A stretch of DNA of 64,000 nucleotides from positions 3,092-67,091 of the forward strand of contig JBIOXS010000156.1 of assembly GCA_044869815.1 (NCBI GenBank), written 5' to 3'. Position numbers and translations under genes: made by a program. Source of the stretch: Candidatus Rokuibacteriota bacterium. Its GTDB lineage: Bacteria > Methylomirabilota > Methylomirabilia > Rokubacteriales > CSP1-6. Of this stretch, positions 45,003-54,197 are shown piece after piece (the first letter of the stretch is position 1; each line of letters opens with the position of its first letter). The notes beneath the pieces are model-generated. The model made no database searches. It saw only the letters and a list, made by a program, of their open reading frames with translations, and was not told where the DNA came from.

Positions 45003-45545
45003 CTACCGCACCGCCGCAAACCCCTGCGGCTCGAGCCGGAACGCCTTGGCGAACTTGCTCGCGAAGACCTGGTAGCCGATCACGAACACGAGCTCCACCG
45101 CGTCGGCCTCCGAGAAGTGCTCTCGCACGCCGGCGAAGCAGTCGTCGGAGACCTCGAGATCGTCGCGTACCATCGCCTCGCAGAGAGCCATCGCCGCTCG
45201 CTCCCGCGGGGTGAACCGGTCGCTCTCGCGCCAGCGCGGCAGCGCCTCGAGCGTCTCGGCGTCGATTCCTTCCTTCACGCCGACGGCGTGACGGATGTCC
45301 ATTCAGTACGCGGCGTCGTAGAGGGTGGCCACCTGCAGCTGCAGCAGCGCGCGCAGCCGGCCATCGAGAGCGCCGAAGCGCTCGATCGACGTCCACAGGG
45401 CGCCGATGCCCAGCATCAGTGCCGGCCGGTGGGCCATGAGCTTCTGCGGGGTCGGCACGTCGCCGAAGAGGCGGCGGCCGATGGCGTAGGTGCCGCGAAC
45501 GACGAGCCCCGGATTCTCGACGGGAGCGATGCGATGAGCGTGCAT
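45003..45545 (-). CDS. carboxymuconolactone decarboxylase/AhpD-like protein, probable selenoprotein (Sec at in-frame TGA 45303-45305)
   Basis: One frame: MHAHRIAP...LQVATLYDAAY-TGA-MDIRHAVG...RERAAMAL; TGA sits at the second Cys of the family CxxCxDxH motif; SECIS-like hairpin follows. Confidence 0.75.
45271..45295 (-). promoter_or_regulatory. candidate bacterial SECIS element
   Basis: TCC-G-TCACGCC-GTC-GGCGTGA-A-GGA; the apical loop G lies 18 nt after the UGA. Confidence 0.6.
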
Positions 45546-45592
45546 GAGACCCTCCTCGTTGGTGTGGGTCGCCCCTCCCTTGACTGCCGAGC

Positions 45593-46096
45593 TCATTGCC
45601 GGAGCTGGCCGGTGACCGTCCGATGCCACGTGACGAGCCCGGTGTCCGGCGGTGACCCGCTGACCATCGTCAGCATGGTCGCGATCTCGCTTCGATGATG
45701 ATTGCCGTGGGCGACGACGTGCGTCAAGAGGATGCCGAGCGGCGTGTGATAGGCGTTGCCCGCGGTGTCCTTGTAGTGTATCTCGCGACCGAGGTCCACC
45801 GGCCCCAGGGCCTCCACCCACGCCTGCTGCTCGGTCACCAGCGCGTCCCAGTCCTTGCGCAGCGCGGCCATCGACCCGATGTCCGCGCCCGGCAGCGCGC
45901 TCGTGGAGTATCCCTTCCAGCGCGCCAGCCACAGGGCGTCGGCCCCGTAGACGTGCGCGAACATCCGCCGCAGCGTGGGGAAGCTGAATTGCTGGCCGAT
46001 CTCGCGGCCGCAGGTCTCCTCGCCGAGCGCGCTGGCCACGTCGAACAAGCGGCGGTTCGCCCACCGGTGATACGCGTGGAGCTCGCTGGGGGTCAT
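45593..46096 (-). CDS. DinB/YfiT-like family protein
   Basis: YHRWANRRL, AHVYGAD..WL, HVVAHGNHHRSEIATML His triad. Confidence 0.85.
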   Translation of the reverse strand: MTPSELHAYHRWANRRLFDVASALGEETCGREIGQQFSFPTLRRMFAHVYGADALWLARWKGYSTSALPGADIGSMAALRKDWDALVTEQQAWVEALGPVDLGREIHYKDTAGNAYHTPLGILLTHVVAHGNHHRSEIATMLTMVSGSPPDTGLVTWHRTVTGQLRQ

Positions 46097-46602
46097 GGCT
46101 GCTCCTGACCGCTGCGGATGGCGATGAAGCGCGCGAGCCCCGTCCCGGGCGGCGAGCCGCTCACCATCGTCAGCATCGTGGCGATCTCGCTGCGGTGATG
46201 CGTCCCGTGGTCGGGCACGTGGTGCAGCAGCAGTCCCAGCGGCTGCCGGAACGCCTTGCCGGACAGCAAGCGATAGTTGATGACGCGGTCGACGTCGGCC
46301 TCGCGCAGGCCGTCGAGAAACGTCTTCTGCTCGCGCTCGAGCGTCACCCAGCGCTCGCCCAGCTCGGCGAGCGTGGCCGGCTCGTCGGGGACCGAGGTCG
46401 GGGACACGCCCTGCCAGCGGGCGAGCCAGAGGCCGTCGACGCCGAAGATGTGGAAGAACATCCGCTTGAGTGAGGGCTCGCTGAACTGGGTGCCGATCGG
46501 ATGCGCGGCCTTCGCCTCTCCCAGCTTGGCCGCGGTGTCGAGGAGCGTGCGGTTCGCCCACCAGTGGTGCTCGTACAGCGTCCGAATCGCGGTCAAGCTC
46601 AT
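46093..46602 (-). CDS. DinB/YfiT-like family protein
   Basis: HHWWANRTL, FHIFGVD..WL, HVPDHGTHHRSEIATML. Confidence 0.85.
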   Translation of the reverse strand: MSLTAIRTLYEHHWWANRTLLDTAAKLGEAKAAHPIGTQFSEPSLKRMFFHIFGVDGLWLARWQGVSPTSVPDEPATLAELGERWVTLEREQKTFLDGLREADVDRVINYRLLSGKAFRQPLGLLLHHVPDHGTHHRSEIATMLTMVSGSPPGTGLARFIAIRSGQEQP

Positions 46603-46606
46603 CGCC

Positions 46607-46822
46607 TCACTCCAGCAGGGCGACCGTCTCGCCCTCCTGCACCGTCTGGCCTTCGCGCACGCGGATCTCCTTGACGGCCCCGGCCCGTGGCGCTTCCACC
46701 GGGATCTCCATCTTCATCGATTCCAGCACGATCACCGGATCGCCCGCGGCCACCCTGTCGCCGGGCTTGGCGGTCACCTGAAACACGATGCCGGTGATGT
46801 GCGCCTTGATCTCCTCAGCCAT
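46607..46822 (-). CDS. stand-alone biotin carboxyl carrier (biotin/lipoyl) protein
   Basis: LESMKMEIPV biotinylation motif, 71 aa. Confidence 0.9.
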   Translation of the reverse strand: MAEEIKAHITGIVFQVTAKPGDRVAAGDPVIVLESMKMEIPVEAPRAGAVKEIRVREGQTVQEGETVALLE

Positions 46823-48158
46823 TGAACGCTCCTTGTTCCACCATCTGGGTGTGCACGACGCCGCGGCGAAACTCCGGATGGCCGGCGATCATTCGTAGCA
46901 GCGGCAGCGTGGTCTTCACGCCCTCCACCACGCAGTCATCGAGCGCGCCGGCCAGGCGCTCGAGGGCCTGCGACCGGTCTCGCCCGCTGGCGATGAGCTT
47001 GAAGAGCAGCGGGTCGTAGTGAACGGACACGACGCTGCCCTCGACCACGCCGGACTCGATGCGGAGCCCCTCGCCGCGCGGCAGCGACAGTCGGGTGAGC
47101 GCTCCGGGTGACGGCAGGAAGTTCTTGGCAGGGTCCTCGGCGTACACGCGCACCTCGATGGCGGCGCCGCGCTGGACGATGGCCTCCTGCGGCCACGGCA
47201 GCGGCGCGCCGGCGGCGACGTCGAGCTGGGCGACGACGAGGTCCGCCCCCGTCACCTCTTCCGTCACCGGATGCTCGACCTGTAACCGCGTGTTCATCTC
47301 GAGGAAGTAGAATTTCTCCCCGTCGACGAGGAACTCCAGGGTGCCGGCGTTGACGTAGCCGATCGCCCGCGCCCCGGCCACGGCGGCCTCCGTGAGCCCC
47401 TGCTTGATCTCGGGACGGAGATTCGGCGCCGGCGACTCCTCGACCAGCTTTTGATGCCGGCGCTGGATCGAGCACTCACGCTCGTGCAGGTGCACCACCG
47501 TGCCCTTGGCGTCGCCGAACACCTGCACCTCGACGTGGCGCCCGCGCTCCACGTACCGCTCGACGTAGACCTCCGCCCGGCCGAACGCCGCCTGCGCGCG
47601 CCGTGTCGCGGTCGCCCACGCGCCCGCCAGATCGCTCTCCTGCGCCACCTTCGCCATGCCGATGCCGCCTCCGCCGGCGGCCGCCTTGAGGATCACGGGG
47701 TAGCCGACGTTCGCGGCGCACCGCTGGGCGGCAGCGGCGTCCGCCACCGGCTCCGGACTGCCGGGCACGATCGGCACGCCGGCGGCGGCCATGCGCCGGC
47801 GCGCTTCCGTCTTGTCCCCCATCACCCGGATGGCCTCGGGCGTCGGGCCGATGAACGTCAGCCCCGCCTGCGCGCACGCCTCGGCGAAGCCCCAGTTCTC
47901 GGAGAGGAATCCATAGCCCGGATGGACGGCGTCGGCCTCGCTCTCCCGGGCGGCCGCGATGATGCGCGGGATGTCGAGATAGCTCTCGCGCGCGGGGGCC
48001 GGCCCGATGGCGATCGCGCGGTCCGCGTCCTTGACGTATGGCGCGTCGCGATCGGCCTCGGAATAGACGGCGACGGTCCGAAGCCGGCGCGTCCGGCAGG
48101 CGCGGAAGACGCGGCGTGCGATCTCTCCGCGATTGGCGACGAGCACGGTGCGGAACAC
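46815..48158 (-). CDS. biotin carboxylase (AccC-like)
   Basis: VLVANRGEIA, HPGYGFLSEN, AAGGGG.GM, RECSIQRRHQK, EMNTRLQVEHPVTE. Confidence 0.93.
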   Translation of the reverse strand: MFRTVLVANRGEIARRVFRACRTRRLRTVAVYSEADRDAPYVKDADRAIAIGPAPARESYLDIPRIIAAARESEADAVHPGYGFLSENWGFAEACAQAGLTFIGPTPEAIRVMGDKTEARRRMAAAGVPIVPGSPEPVADAAAAQRCAANVGYPVILKAAAGGGGIGMAKVAQESDLAGAWATATRRAQAAFGRAEVYVERYVERGRHVEVQVFGDAKGTVVHLHERECSIQRRHQKLVEESPAPNLRPEIKQGLTEAAVAGARAIGYVNAGTLEFLVDGEKFYFLEMNTRLQVEHPVTEEVTGADLVVAQLDVAAGAPLPWPQEAIVQRGAAIEVRVYAEDPAKNFLPSPGALTRLSLPRGEGLRIESGVVEGSVVSVHYDPLLFKLIASGRDRSQALERLAGALDDCVVEGVKTTLPLLRMIAGHPEFRRGVVHTQMVEQGAFNG

Positions 48159-48161
48159 GGC

Positions 48162-49151
48162 TCAGAAAGCCGGGCCGACGTCGACCGGCTCGACGCGCAC
48201 CAGGTCGGCGGCGGTGACACGCCAGCCGGCCTTCGACGGCGTCCACCGCAGCTGCAGGTAGCCGATCACGCGCGCGCCCTCGAGCCGCACCTTCACGAGC
48301 CGATGGTGACCGATCGCCGCCAGCGCCACCACGCGCGAGGTGGCGACGTGGTCGCCGAGCCGATCGTGCTCGGCGATCACGCCGGCCCGGGCCGACGGCT
48401 CCACGAGCGCGGAGGCGGCCGCGGTGTCGCCCGACTCGAGCGCATGGCGGTAGGCGTCGACGGCCACCGCCAGGTCGTGCTCGAGCACGGCAGGATCGAA
48501 CTCCGGCGGTACCTCCACGAGATCCTGCTTCACGGCGTGAGGCGACTCGGCCAGGACGGCGGCGTCGATGAGCGGCGCCGGGACGTCGCCCGTCACGCCG
48601 CCCGCTTCGGCGAGCAGCGCCAGCAGCCTCCTCTCCCACACCGTCGCGCGCTCCCGCGCCGTATCGTCACGGCTGAGGCGGGCCAGCACGATGGCGCCGG
48701 CGGCGGCGTGGCGGCGCTCCTCCTCCAGGCAGCGCTCGAGAATTCGCCGGGTCGGCGGCTCGTAGACCGGGTTGGCGTTCCCCAGGTGCCGCGCGTAGAC
48801 GGTGACCATATGCGGCTTGAGCACGCGATAGACACCGGCCACGCGCTCGAGCGTCTCGCGCGGTCCCTCGGCGGACTCGAGGAGATCGGCGAACTTGGCC
48901 ATGCGATCGTTGGCGGGCTCGGACTGCTGGGCGGGCGCCCGCAGCTCCGGCAGCCGCTTGCCCCAGAGGTCGGCGTGCTGCGCGCAGTCCCAGACGTGGC
49001 GGCCGAAGAGGAGCTTGGCGGGCAGCTCGGGCGTCAGCGCGATCCAGCCGCCCAGGGCCCGCAGCATGCGCTCCTCGGCGTAACGGTAGTTGCGGATTCG
49101 CCGCGCGGAGTCGTCGACGGAGAAGTGGCCAGCGAGGCGGTCGGAGCTCAA
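48162..49151 (-). CDS. ferritin-like four-helix-bundle protein with extra C-terminal domain, function unknown
   Basis: YAEERM, RHVWDCAQHA, LEEERRH pattern; TTG start overlapping upstream stop. Confidence 0.55.
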   Translation of the reverse strand: MSSDRLAGHFSVDDSARRIRNYRYAEERMLRALGGWIALTPELPAKLLFGRHVWDCAQHADLWGKRLPELRAPAQQSEPANDRMAKFADLLESAEGPRETLERVAGVYRVLKPHMVTVYARHLGNANPVYEPPTRRILERCLEEERRHAAAGAIVLARLSRDDTARERATVWERRLLALLAEAGGVTGDVPAPLIDAAVLAESPHAVKQDLVEVPPEFDPAVLEHDLAVAVDAYRHALESGDTAAASALVEPSARAGVIAEHDRLGDHVATSRVVALAAIGHHRLVKVRLEGARVIGYLQLRWTPSKAGWRVTAADLVRVEPVDVGPAF

Positions 49152-49903
49152 TACACCTGCGAGCGCTGCGTGCTCTTGATCAGCCGCTCGATCTCCTCGT
49201 CGGTGAAGCCGGCCAGCCGCCGCGCCTCCTTGGCGATGGAGATCGGCACGACGTCGTGCTGGCCGTCCTGGCGGGTGCCGCCGAGATTGAACCGCTCGTC
49301 GATCGTCTCCTGGAACTCGATGGCCTTGCGGCGGCGCTCGGGCTCCCCGCGCGTGAGCTCGTTGAGCCAGCGCGACCCCATGCGCACGTGAGTGATTTCG
49401 TCGGCCAGCACGTAGTCCACGGACTGCTCGACGATCGGATCGCCGATCTTCCCCGCGATGTGGATGAGCTGGTTGAAGACGTCGCACGCCAGGCCTTCCA
49501 GGCCGCGGTTGACGCCGGCCACGCGCGCGGCGGCGTCCTCGGCGCACGCGCAGCGCCAGAGAATCGTCGTCTCCGGGAACTCGCCGAGCCGACCGCCGAG
49601 ATGCTCGAGGAGGCCGAGATAGGTCTCCACGTGGCGCGACTCGTCCCACACCTGCCGCGCCATGTCCAGGGTGAACTCCCACGGCGCATCGGGGAAGTCG
49701 CAGACCGTCCGGCCGGCGCCCTCCATCGCCTGGAGCTCGCCGACGAGGATCCCGTGCACGCGCTCACGCATCGACTCGCGGCTCGACAGATCCGGGAATG
49801 GCGGGAGACCCTGGGCGACTTTCAGCTCGGCGACGTCGCGCGCGCGCATGCGGATGAAGCGGTCCTCCCGGGCAAGCTTGTCGTAAGCGATCGGCCGTTC
49901 CAT
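49148..49903 (-). CDS. DUF455-like ferritin/diiron protein
   Basis: HGILVGELQAME, RQVWDESRH, LEGLA.D, LADEITHV (E...DExRH...E...DExxH); GGAAGGAG RBS. Confidence 0.75.
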   Translation of the reverse strand: MERPIAYDKLAREDRFIRMRARDVAELKVAQGLPPFPDLSSRESMRERVHGILVGELQAMEGAGRTVCDFPDAPWEFTLDMARQVWDESRHVETYLGLLEHLGGRLGEFPETTILWRCACAEDAAARVAGVNRGLEGLACDVFNQLIHIAGKIGDPIVEQSVDYVLADEITHVRMGSRWLNELTRGEPERRRKAIEFQETIDERFNLGGTRQDGQHDVVPISIAKEARRLAGFTDEEIERLIKSTQRSQVY

Positions 49904-49940
49904 CGGGATCTCCTTCCGGACTGAACCGCTATTCAGCGCG

Positions 49941-49949
49941 AGTGTAGCA
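49941..49949 (-). promoter_or_regulatory. candidate extended -10 promoter of the ferritin-like operon
   Basis: TG-C-TACACT; CTGAA-N6-TTCAG dyad at 49921-49936 just downstream. Confidence 0.4.
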
Positions 49950-49981: not shown

Positions 49982-50003
49982 CCACCCACGGCTCGAGCCG
50001 CAC
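49982..50003. repeat. 22-bp inverted repeat, left copy
   Basis: CCACCCACGGCTCGAGCCGCAC; exact reverse complement at 54176-54197. Confidence 0.85.
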
Positions 50004-54175: not shown

Positions 54176-54197
54176 GTGCGGCTCGAGCCGTGGGTGG
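54176..54197. repeat. 22-bp inverted repeat, right copy
   Basis: GTGCGGCTCGAGCCGTGGGTGG; adjoins a 12-nt tandem repeat GTGGGTGGCCTG x2 (54190-54213). Confidence 0.85.

Follow-up and report, generated by a model that had tools for sequence, protein, structure and literature searches.

Ferritin-fold diiron enzymes such as PaaA/PaaC, the core of the phenylacetyl-CoA 1,2-epoxidase, BoxB and aldehyde-deformylating oxygenase (ADO) act on acyl thioesters or aldehydes. Split-subunit acyl-CoA carboxylases combine a separate biotin carboxylase (BC), a biotinyl carrier protein (BCCP) and a PccB/AccD-type carboxyltransferase (CT). Clusters of the Atu/Liu type (geranyl-/methylcrotonyl-CoA carboxylase) bring a biotin carboxylase together with a CoA ligase, an acyl-CoA dehydrogenase (ACAD) and an enoyl-CoA hydratase, and the Ali/Bad pathway of cyclohexanecarboxylate ends in pimeloyl-CoA. 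To our knowledge, none of the Atu, Liu or Ali clusters includes ferritin-like or DinB proteins.

We analyzed an operon of an uncultured soil bacterium (Rokubacteria) located in the window, that is, the whole 64,000-nucleotide stretch of DNA under study. Its seven genes (g1 to g7, Table 1) encode two ferritin-like proteins, a BC, a BCCP, two DinB proteins and a selenocysteine-containing CMD protein (Sec-CMD). A previous sequence-only reading knew of no described pathway with this combination, and our literature searches found none either; no close solved relative was found for g1 or g2. We favor, with a probability of about 40%, a PaaAC-like diiron oxygenase coupled to the biotin-dependent carboxylation of a substrate derived from acyl-CoA.

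Genomic organization and conservation

Profile searches, together with the fold of g2, confirmed the family names previously given to the seven genes, and the cluster proved to be a real operon-like unit. Its junctions from g1 to g7 are, in order, a 4-nt overlap, a 3-nt gap, an 8-nt overlap, a 4-nt gap, a 4-nt overlap and a 47-nt gap. The common minus strand and the wider gap before g7 were thus as first described, but the overlap of g3 and g4 slightly exceeds the 4 nt given as the maximum. No terminator-like site was found within the operon, and the single promoter-like match in it is weak and lies inside g6. The 16-nt core of the REP-like element occurs at least at seven places on six contigs of the genome, and this element is outside the specific control of the operon.

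Table 1. Coordinates of the operon genes and of associated sequence elements in the window
Feature	Position	Strand	Description
g1	49148..49903	-	251 aa, DUF455 ferritin-like (PF04305), 99.7 bits vs cut-off 34.3
g2	48162..49151	-	329 aa, TTG start at 49151; ferritin-like + NTF2-like partner subunit
g3	46815..48158	-	447 aa, biotin carboxylase (ATP-grasp)
g4	46607..46822	-	71 aa biotinyl carrier protein, ESMKME motif
g5	46093..46602	-	DinB family (PF05163), copy a, E 2.9e-13
g6	45593..46096	-	DinB family (PF05163), copy b, the commoner orthologue, E 5.3e-15
g7	45003..45545	-	180 aa CMD/AhpD-like selenoprotein (PF02627), lineage-specific add-on
Extended -10 element TG-c-TACACT	49941..49949	-	Read directly from sequence
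Operator dyad CTGAATAGCGGTTCAG (TGAAY-N4-GTTCA)	49921..49936	-	Predicted YsiA/FadR-type TetR site
SECIS-like hairpin UCACGCC-GUC-GGCGUGA	45275..45291	-	RNAfold; starts 11 nt past UGA
REP-like 22-bp palindromic element	49982..50003		Between polIV and promoter

We compared 55 loci bounded by rpoD from about 50 genera of Rokubacteriales. DUF455, g2 and the 71-aa BCCP were present and always adjacent in all of them and BC in 47, while the flanking genes vary. Twelve loci contain DUF455-g2-BC-BCCP alone and one (L089) only DUF455-g2-BCCP; g2 was found in 172 of the 251 genomes of the phylum. Based on these gene counts, the seven genes resolve into a four-gene core, DUF455-g2-BC-BCCP, plus variable add-ons. 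The operon is specific to the order Rokubacteriales. Contrary to the first reading, the seven genes are not a single conserved pathway: the core recurs, but the DinB proteins (40/55 loci) and the Sec-CMD (2/55) do not belong to it.

The region from polIV to rpoD is syntenic in most loci, so the adjacency could simply be inherited. The locus would then be a mosaic in which an ordinary acetyl/propionyl-CoA-type carboxylase (BC, BCCP and a PccB-like CT), decaying in many lineages, lies beside an unrelated DUF455/g2 housekeeping enzyme with which it shares locus ancestry and no pathway. CT, BC and DinB were indeed lost independently by lineage, as expected of a redundant paralogous carboxylase, other genes (ligase/ACAD/hydratase, TM151, CMD) were freely inserted, and DUF455 fusions in other bacteria are not accompanied by biotin genes. 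However, every locus retains BCCP, and its conservation matches that of DUF455 (median identities 83 and 84%, respectively, against 77% for RpoD). Moreover, the junctions overlap or span a few nucleotides, a single conserved promoter and operator precede g1, no internal terminator was found, and the four core genes stay contiguous down to an RpoD identity of 57% while their neighbors change. We consider a mosaic origin improbable.

In one genus, genes for an AliA-like CoA ligase, an enoyl-CoA hydratase and an AliB-like ACAD are inserted between BC and BCCP, giving a set like that of the Atu/Liu clusters with a ligase and an ACAD nearest to those of the Ali/Bad clusters. However, this insertion is genus-specific and absent from the window, its AliA/AliB matches score below the equivalog cut-offs, the rokubacterial CT is PccB-like and not MccB/AtuC-like, and the operon has no lyase, BadH or BadI genes.

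The ferritin-like pair

The predicted metal ligands of g1 are E61, E88xxH91, E136 and E169xxH172, and these six positions are invariant in 43 orthologues (mean column identity of 89%). DUF455 identity ranges from 79 to 98% across the order. The structure model of g1, of low confidence (pLDDT 59), resembles ADO and PaaAC. Thus, g1 is predicted to be a catalytic dimetal subunit with a complete E/ExxH/E/ExxH site.

The g2 product has no Pfam or NCBIfam match, and its TTG start is required because residues 6 to 28 are conserved. Its AF2 model (pLDDT 90) comprises a ferritin-like bundle (residues 8 to 183) and an NTF2-like domain (residues 225 to 322). Foldseek related the first to ferritin-like proteins, ADO and PaaA and the second to AtzH/KSI, with E-values that are all weak for the pair (0.003 or worse, about 0.003 to 0.2). 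In hhalign, the two proteins aligned in register, WDCAQH and EERRH of g2 lying opposite the g1 motifs WDESRH and DEITH. The Glu of the first ExxH is replaced by C, L or N in g2. Relatives of the g2 N-domain match DUF455, and natural g2N-DUF455 fusion proteins exist in other bacteria, where biotin genes are not nearby. The fold, the motifs in register and these relatives bear out the description of two ferritin-like proteins: g2 is a paralogue of g1 with a degenerate DUF455-like ferritin domain and an NTF2-like domain.

The pair thus recalls PaaA/PaaC in having a ferritin-fold diiron catalytic subunit with a degenerate paralogous partner and a context of acyl-CoA metabolism, and PaaA/PaaC and ADO chains are among its best structural matches. 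However, membership by sequence is absent, as g1 belongs to DUF455 and g2 to no family, g2 has the additional NTF2-like domain, and the operon lacks PaaB, PaaD and PaaE (reductase). Unlike DUF455/g2, no Paa, Box or ADO system that we know of is linked to BC and BCCP.

The biotin-dependent proteins

The g3 product contains all three domains of a biotin carboxylase (Biotin_carb_N, CPSase_L_D2 and Biotin_carb_C) and the motifs GGGG-x-GM and EMNTRLQVEH, and scores 592 bits to the AccC-type model PRK08591. It is the third BC of the genome, besides efp-accB-accC on contig C30 and a copy on contig C162. The g4 carrier (PF00364) has the length of the mycobacterial 71-aa biotinyl protein family PRK05889 (NF004547) and scores over its cut-off (85.9 vs 75 bits). 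Since efp-accB-accC and a PccB gene adjoining that of methylmalonyl-CoA mutase are already present, g3 and g4 represent an extra system. Some g2-BC "fusions" in the protein library were rejected as frameshift artefacts.

A PccB/MmdA-like CT gene lies directly downstream in 21 of the 55 loci (592 bits to TIGR01117), with a median identity of 82%, above that of RpoD. This CT is a member of the ancestral set and was lost in the genome studied here. Neither this genome nor 11 others of 88 to 100% completeness encode the dedicated, operon-type CT, the best CT elsewhere being 47 to 50% identical; paralogous PccB-type CTs occur in every genome tested, three of them in our genome. The domains and motifs of BC and the adjoining CT of related loci are shared with split-subunit acyl-CoA carboxylases. 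In contrast to these, the operon in the window has no CT, BC and BCCP always lie behind two ferritin-like genes under one promoter, and the housekeeping accBC and mutase-adjoining PccB are encoded separately.

The absence of the dedicated CT and the twelve core-only loci indicate that the core works without a CT of its own, which fits DUF455/g2 as a fourth, metal-dependent carboxyltransferase or carboxybiotin-consuming module better than it fits a diiron oxygenase. DUF455-g2-BC-BCCP would then be a complete new biotin-dependent enzyme whose dimetal site polarizes a carbonyl or activates a C-H bond to accept the carrier CO2, and the PccB-like CT and DinB would be secondary, dispensable additions. 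DUF455, g2 and BCCP are the sole invariant trio, no products are more conserved than DUF455 and BCCP, and BCCP keeps 76 to 85% identity even where BC was lost (five to six lineages). The twelve core-only loci and L089 also fit this alternative. There is also a precedent for metal use, as the CT domain of pyruvate carboxylase employs a bound divalent metal in enolate formation. However, we know of no ferritin-fold carboxyltransferase, a six-ligand diiron motif as complete as this typically marks O2 activation, and the g2N-DUF455 fusions lack biotin genes nearby. The paralogous CTs could serve in trans, and contact between BCCP and DUF455/g2 would have to be presumed; the apparent g2-BC fusions are artefacts. 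On balance we consider this alternative, the main rival of the diiron oxygenase reading, rather unlikely.

DinB proteins and Sec-CMD

The g5 and g6 products are 50% identical, which makes them a tandem duplicate; g6 also matches DinB_2 (40 bits) and has the His-rich motifs FAHVYG and HGNHHR. DinB is frequent but dispensable, with two copies in only nine of the 55 loci.

The g7 gene (PF02627, 38.1 bits) has an in-frame TGA at 45305-45303, conserved in its sole orthologue (locus L044). The 7-bp hairpin downstream is retained there with the loop GUC changed to GUU, and in the Sec paralogue encoded on contig C90 a separate hairpin, whose loop is GGUCU, follows 12 nt after the UGA. The genome encodes tRNA-Sec and selB. 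The Sec-CMD assignment therefore stands. The PDB relatives of g7 are Atu0492, PA0269, the Bmp8 debrominase and AhpD. As in other Sec-containing AhpD-like/CMD proteins, g7 has a CMD fold, a SECIS-like hairpin and an in-frame UGA placed at the redox-active position, but its motif AAY-U lacks the Cys three residues upstream, whereas the C90 paralogue has CPF-U, and g7 scores 100 bits to the YciW-related (seleno)protein family NF053654, far under the cut-off of 310. The gene is missing from the same-genus loci L045 and L046, and is a genus-level add-on.

Promoter and predicted operator

Both elements of the earlier description, the extended -10 box and the dyad CTGAA-N6-TTCAG, were confirmed, in the order TG-n-TACACT, CTGAATAGCGGTTCAG, GGAAGGAG and ATG of g1. 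Among 62 orthologous loci, a -10 followed by cTGAACAGCGGTTCAtt was located upstream of the DUF455 orthologue in about 45, a recurrence that exceeds chance. TAcACT or TAgACT occupies the equivalent place in most loci, usually 17 to 18 nt after TTGCC.

Perfect TGAAC-N4-GTTCA boxes precede two YsiA-like TetR genes and an ACAD gene in the same genome, and eight of 14 boxes in four other genomes precede DUF455, the ACAD orthologue or a TetR gene. In five genomes the operator is common to YsiA-like TetR genes (PF08359) and an ACAD of two subunits that resembles PimC/PimD. The TetR orthologue was found in 7/7 genomes of family f1, six of the seven orthologues having a box 9 to 39 nt upstream of their own start, and in 0/5 of family f2, where the box is likewise missing, so that both are co-present or co-absent. 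The dyad appears to serve as operator in the regulon of a YsiA/FadR-type TetR, to which an acyl-CoA dehydrogenase also belongs, and the location of the boxes and their absence without TetR point to acyl-CoA-responsive control of the operon by an acyl-CoA-type repressor. The regulator (TetR_N plus a YsiA-like C-domain) and the TGAAY/RTTCA palindrome upstream of both its own gene and an ACAD gene are shared with the FadR (YsiA) regulons of fatty-acid degradation of Bacillus and Thermus, from which the predicted regulon differs in being small (tetR, the two-subunit ACAD and the DUF455 operon). The half-sites are similar to those of the FadR operator of Bacillus halodurans (PMC5397183), although the rokubacterial box is a single 14-bp palindrome and that of B. 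halodurans a 21-bp double site.

The ACAD under the same predicted control is similar to the pimeloyl-CoA dehydrogenase PimC, although its 257 bits fall short of the cut-off of 624. With the invariant linkage of the diiron pair to a biotinyl carrier, and the AliA/AliB-like inserts belonging to a pathway that leads to pimeloyl-CoA, this could suggest an O2-dependent biotin/pimelate route in which the pair makes or modifies a biotin precursor or carrier-bound cofactor, with carrier and BC as client proteins. Yet the locus has no bio gene or BirA-type operator, its predicted operator being of the FadR-type TetR, the PimC and AliA/AliB matches fall under the family cut-offs and the insertion is limited to one genus, which makes this route very unlikely.

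Proposed function

In our preferred reading, a diiron oxygenase coupled to carboxylation, the YsiA/FadR-type TetR would repress the operon at TGAAC-N4-GTTCA until an acyl-CoA effector accumulates. DUF455 and g2 would form a heteromeric ferritin-like dimetal enzyme, g2 bringing the NTF2-like pocket domain. BC would carboxylate the carrier biotin using ATP and bicarbonate, and the carboxyl group would pass to an acyl-CoA-derived intermediate through the PccB-like CT where the operon still encodes one; in the genome studied here one of the three paralogous CTs would act in trans. With O2, DUF455/g2 may then hydroxylate, epoxidize or desaturate the same carbon skeleton, as PaaA/PaaC do on phenylacetyl-CoA. 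Accessory roles in handling reactive intermediates or peroxide would fall to the DinB metalloproteins and, within this genus alone, to the Sec-CMD.

The nearest folds of the pair, ADO and PaaA/PaaC, act on acyl or acyl-CoA substrates. No oxygenase reductase or ferredoxin gene was found in the operon, which counts against this reading, as do the loss of BC in several lineages, the low pLDDT of the g1 model and the weak Foldseek matches. Of the functions first proposed, the catabolic option gains support from the dyad as an operator of a TetR regulon covering an ACAD and from the one-genus AliA/AliB-like ligase/dehydrogenase/hydratase insert, whereas the hypothetical scheme "oxidise, carboxylate, thiol-conjugate" rests partly on non-conserved genes. 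What is new here, and not described in the literature found, is an order-wide operon in which the genes of a predicted two-protein iron enzyme are combined with those for a biotin carboxylase and a small biotinyl carrier.

Organization of the operon

Seven genes, g1 to g7, were modelled from an ORF listing and start-codon inspection in the window, which has about 69% G+C (see table). Together with the upstream sequence, these models confirmed the sequence-only reading of seven co-directional genes behind a promoter and a dyad. From g1 to g7 the successive junctions are a 4-nt overlap, a 3-nt gap, an 8-nt overlap, a 4-nt gap, a 4-nt overlap and a 47-nt gap. The start of g2 is a TTG codon, within a TTGA that overlaps the g1 stop, and it was placed there because g2 residues 6-28 are conserved in the orthologue alignment. 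A consensus scan revealed no terminator-like sites inside the operon and a single, weak promoter-like site. Family scans agreed with the families previously named for g1 and g3 to g7.

Coordinates and products of the operon genes in the window
Gene	Coordinates	Strand	Product and features
g1	49903..49148	minus	251 aa, DUF455
g2	49151..48162	minus	329 aa, family scans without match
g3	48158..46815	minus	447 aa, biotin carboxylase
g4	46822..46607	minus	71 aa, biotinyl carrier
g5	46602..46093	minus	169 aa, DinB
g6	46096..45593	minus	167 aa, DinB
g7	45545..45003	minus	180 aa, CMD, in-frame TGA at 45305-45303

The ferritin-like pair

The product of g1 scored 99.7 bits against DUF455 (PF04305; gathering threshold 34.3). 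This family has members in bacteria and in eukaryotes, and we know of no function assigned to it and no solved structure. The six canonical metal ligands of g1 (E61, E88, H91, E136, E169 and H172) are invariant among 43 orthologues and complete the E...ExxH...E...ExxH pattern. Its AlphaFold2 (AF2) model is poor (pLDDT 59), the alignment of orthologues being too uniform, so that its best fold matches, aldehyde-deformylating oxygenase (ADO), R2lox and PaaAC, are indicative only.

The product of g2 gave no match to the DUF455 HMM, and relatives of its N-domain match it weakly. Its alignment (36 orthologues) and AF2 model (pLDDT 90) indicated two domains, a helical bundle at residues 8-183 and an alpha+beta domain at residues 225-322. 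Foldseek placed the former with ferritin-like proteins (3ez0, ADO, PaaA and T4MO) and the latter with NTF2-like proteins such as AtzH and ketosteroid isomerase, all the matches being weak (E about 0.003-0.02). In hhalign the g2 motifs WDCAQH and EERRH pair in register with the g1 motifs WDESRH and DEITH. Taken with the DUF455-matching relatives, this fold and register bear out the earlier proposal that g2 is a second ferritin-like protein. However, the first-ExxH Glu is replaced by Cys, Leu or Asn among the g2 orthologues, leaving the six-ligand pattern incomplete. Given the shared fold and register, the invariant ligands of g1 and the loss of this Glu in g2, the two proteins resemble a catalytic subunit and its degenerate partner.

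Among distant relatives of the g2 N-domain there are single-chain proteins of 420-550 aa in which a g2N-like domain is followed by DUF455. The genomic contexts of these fused proteins and of the distant g2N-like ones in other bacteria had no biotin genes nearby and were uninformative. The window's own genome also encodes two stand-alone ferritin-like proteins of about 217 aa with ExxH motifs and weak DUF455 matches (C97:18604-19257 and C12:25860-26519), with a carboxyltransferase paralogue about 0.8 kb upstream of one of them.

Searches of PDB sequences with g1, g2 and the g1 profile returned no relatives. The likeness to the phenylacetyl-CoA epoxidase subunits PaaA and PaaC is a weak fold resemblance only, since neither g1 nor g2 has a PaaA/PaaC Pfam match at E <= 0.01 and the companion genes paaB, paaD and paaE were seen in 0 of 64 loci. 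The ORF listing and family scans detected no reductase or ferredoxin gene in the operon.

A four-gene core conserved in Rokubacteriales

Close homologues of the operon proteins carry Methylomirabilota/Rokubacteria source names. Of 251 genomes from the phylum, 172 have the g2 gene (75 of the 104 high-quality ones), and these belong essentially to one order. Mapping of the window proteins by tblastn onto 60 neighbourhoods from about 50 genera revealed a syntenic order: polIV, DUF455, g2, biotin carboxylase (BC), biotinyl carrier (BCCP), up to two DinB genes, at most one PccB-like carboxyltransferase (CT) gene, then a CMD gene, a gene for a 151-aa membrane protein or nothing, and finally rpoD in the opposite orientation. 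Of the 55 loci bounded by rpoD, every one contains DUF455, g2 and BCCP, whereas BC is present in 47 (fragmented in three more and truly deleted in about five), DinB in 40 (nine with two copies), CT in 21 and CMD in two; the four core genes stand alone in 12. The seven genes therefore consist of a core of four, DUF455-g2-BC-BCCP, with lineage-specific additions, and the idea that all seven genes form one conserved unit did not survive this comparison. Median identity to the window proteins was 84% for DUF455, 83% for BCCP, 82% for CT, 77% for RpoD, 72% for BC, 58% for DinB and 55% for g2; DUF455 thus exceeds the primary sigma factor in conservation. From the operon end to rpoD the genes are heterogeneous (LLM oxidoreductase, MFS, MMPL, solute-binding protein, beta-lactamase) and contain no further conserved member.

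Several loci depart from this plan. BC is deleted in L065, L066, L081, L082, L089 and L095, which keep the 71-aa carrier at 76-85% identity; L081 retains a 38-aa BC remnant and L089 consists of DUF455-g2-BCCP only. In L090-L096, which belong to a sister family (f2), g2 is split into a ferritin-like ORF of about 200 aa and a separate NTF2-like ORF of about 100 aa. The locus L004 (GCA_035513515.1, labelled Limnocylindria) is a 3.9-kb contig with the same gene order and a DUF455 93% identical to that of the window, and is probably of rokubacterial origin and misplaced in a Chloroflexota MAG. Proteins of the representative library resembling g2-BC fusions were considered as Rosetta-stone evidence and rejected, because they are patchy partial-domain matches typical of frameshifted assemblies.

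In three loci of one genus (L076, L099 and L103) BC and BCCP are separated by an insertion of 3.7-4.5 kb that encodes a CoA ligase, an enoyl-CoA hydratase and an acyl-CoA dehydrogenase (ACAD). The ligase is AliA-like (nearest to cyclohexanecarboxylate-CoA ligase, 585 bits) and the ACAD is AliB-like (nearest to cyclohexanecarboxyl-CoA dehydrogenase, 447 bits), both below cut-off. The insertion is a further link of the module to acyl-CoA catabolism, though one in the form of a local mosaic. That the cluster as a whole is a mosaic of unrelated modules seems to us quite improbable.

The comparison shows a conserved four-gene unit behind a single promoter, in which a ferritin-like pair, one member catalytic and the other degenerate, is linked to BC and to a BCCP of minimal size.

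Full-text literature searches (DUF455, COG2833, ferritin-like with BC and DinB, Rokubacteria with BC) found nothing on this gene combination or on DUF455 function, in keeping with the sequence-only reading, which knew of no described pathway combining these families.

The carboxylase genes and the missing carboxyltransferase

The g3 protein has three domains, Biotin_carb_N, ATP-grasp and Biotin_carb_C, and contains both the glycine-rich loop and EMNTRLQVEH; its AccC-type score (592 bits) is just below the subfamily cut-off of 597. By its domain (PF00364, 70 bits; NF004547, 85.9 bits, cut-off 75) and its lysine motif, ESMKME, g4 is a biotin carboxyl carrier protein with predicted biotinylation. 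We considered g3-g4 as the housekeeping acetyl-CoA carboxylase (ACC) or a canonical propionyl-CoA carboxylase (PCC) and rejected both, because the same genome has a canonical efp-accB-accC operon on contig C30 and a PccB (820 bits) adjoining methylmalonyl-CoA mutase on contig C108.

No CT subunit is encoded in the window operon, so the CT that an acyl-CoA carboxylase holoenzyme would have alongside BC and BCCP is absent there. The operon-type CT of the relatives, L005 among them, is PccB/MmdA-like (592 bits to TIGR01117), and three other CTs in the window's genome, one of which is the PccB on C108, are 39-49% identical to it; the CT of the ancestral set has been lost from this genome. In genomes with CT in the operon this protein is 81-84% identical, whereas 11 genomes of 88-100% completeness whose operon has no CT contain, at best, a CT 47-50% identical to the operon type. 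Because it was lost without replacement in these near-complete genomes, the dedicated CT is truly dispensable.

Known modules that use carboxybiotin are of three classes, crotonase-fold, TIM-barrel and KipA/KipI-type. The true loss of CT, the minimal loci without it and the invariant DUF455-g2-BCCP trio would suit a fourth structural class, in which DUF455/g2 would be a ferritin-fold dimetal "carboxyltransferase". Yet such an enzyme lacks precedent and DUF455 fusions occur elsewhere without biotin genes, and we regard this explanation, the main rival of our preferred reading, as rather unlikely. The same doubt attaches to its corollary, that DUF455-g2-BC-BCCP would be a complete, new biotin-dependent enzyme, near-universal, highly constrained and acyl-CoA-switched in Rokubacteriales.

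Promoter, operator and a predicted TetR regulon

Upstream of g1 there are, in order, TG-c-TACACT (49949-49941), CTGAATAGCGGTTCAG (49936-49921), GGAAGGAG and the ATG. A -10 element followed by cTGAACAGCGGTTCAtt is conserved upstream of DUF455 in about 45 of the 62 loci, and other clades have TATAAT or TAGAAT instead, at 7-10 nt from the start codon of DUF455. In family f2 (L090-L096) the operon has no TGAAC-N4-GTTCA box, and a mere 7-10 nt separate the TAGAAT/TATAAT hexamer from the ATG, which suggests that the f2 transcript is leaderless.

We looked for the perfect box in the window's genome and found it four times: before two TetR genes, before one ACAD gene and in one interval (C28:2466) between divergent genes for a MoxR-type AAA ATPase and an M48-like membrane peptidase. 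The TetR proteins (C164/C166) have a YsiA-like C-domain (PF08359, 108-109 bits). Four further genomes contain 14 perfect boxes vs none for a reversed control pattern. Of these boxes, three are upstream of DUF455, one is upstream of a TetR gene, and four are upstream of the orthologous ACAD, which is a PimC/PimD-like two-subunit enzyme. Over all, the box precedes the ACAD in five genomes. A TetR orthologue is present in 7/7 genomes of family f1 and 0/5 of family f2, whose loci lack the box too (one genome, G242, has no box at all), and in 6/7 orthologues the box is 9-39 nt before the regulator's own start. The half-sites resemble those of the FadR operator published for Bacillus halodurans, GATGAATGAATACTCATTCAT (PMC5397183).

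As in FadR/YsiA-type TetR regulons, the regulator thus combines a YsiA-like C-domain with a palindrome in its own promoter and before its targets, and the FadR-type regulator, the ACAD and the DUF455 operon have this operator in common. From these sequences we infer that they form a FadR-type mini-regulon, predicted to be acyl-CoA-responsive. A biotin- or pimelate-related role for the cluster appears very remote.

The GAAC-N4-GTTC motif is similar to the Cheo box of LexA. LexA/SOS control, considered for this similarity and for the adjoining polIV gene, was rejected because perfect boxes precede TetR, ACAD and MoxR/M48 genes and none precedes SOS genes. A box in L115 (G130:C4:347328), whose flanks (CTACAAT...CTGAACGAATGTTCATTCAG) resemble those around the DUF455 operator, is upstream of a gene for a 343-aa protein without identified family and of a divergent MBL-fold gene. 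A 22-bp palindrome, CCACCCACGGCTCGAGCCGCAC, brackets the iscS2...polIV block (49982-50003 and 54176-54197). It was considered as a site of specific regulation or of recombination and rejected, since its core recurs in at least 7 places, spread over 6 contigs of the genome and with similar flanks each time, and thus behaves like a dispersed REP-type element.

The DinB and Sec-CMD genes

Both g5 and g6 are DinB proteins by PF05163 (50.5 and 56.2 bits; cut-off 23) and by DinB_2 of the thiol-transferase superfamily (26.3 and 40 bits; cut-off 24.8), and a PDB sequence search gave no close solved relatives of g6. The CMD domain of g7 scored 38.1 bits against a cut-off of 23, and its match to NF053654 (100 bits) is below the cut-off of 310; relatives with a solved structure are uncharacterised CMD proteins, the debrominase Bmp8 and AhpD. 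Its motif, A-A-Y-U, has a predicted Sec without resolving Cys at -3.

The UGA is kept in the CMD gene of the congener L044, a 7-bp hairpin with a GUC or GUU loop starts 11 nt downstream of it, and the window's genome has both tRNA-Sec and selB. With a conserved UGA, a SECIS-like hairpin, tRNA-Sec and SelB, g7 has the hallmarks of a bacterial selenoprotein and Sec insertion is predicted, as had been proposed. The gene is restricted to the window and L044, being absent from L045 and L046 (2 of 4 congeners sampled). The selB gene is split across contig ends, C40:1-699 (N-terminal 233 positions) and C101:2-1228 (positions 220-580), which is an assembly break and not a broken gene. Outside the window, the genome has a second CMD-family selenoprotein candidate (C90:9057-9590), 37% identical to g7, with a canonical C-P-F-UGA and a GGUCU-loop hairpin 12 nt after the UGA.

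Possible function and significance

Our preferred reading, to which we give a probability of about 0.4, is that a PaaAC-like diiron oxygenase and biotin-dependent carboxylation would act on one and the same acyl-CoA-derived substrate. Acyl-CoA would induce the DUF455 operon, and the DinB and Sec-CMD proteins would be accessory.

Rokubacteria are an abundant, uncultured phylum of soil. Their DUF455 is tractable, being tightly conserved in Rokubacteriales, always accompanied by a degenerate paralogue and always followed by a biotinyl carrier, and the four-protein set with its predicted acyl-CoA-type inducer offers a concrete handle on DUF455 chemistry. If the iron pair acts directly with carboxybiotin, it would be a new architecture in the small and long-closed list of biotin-dependent enzymes; if an acyl-CoA oxygenase is coupled to a carboxylase, the operon would represent a novel aerobic pathway for acids that are recalcitrant because they are branched or alicyclic.
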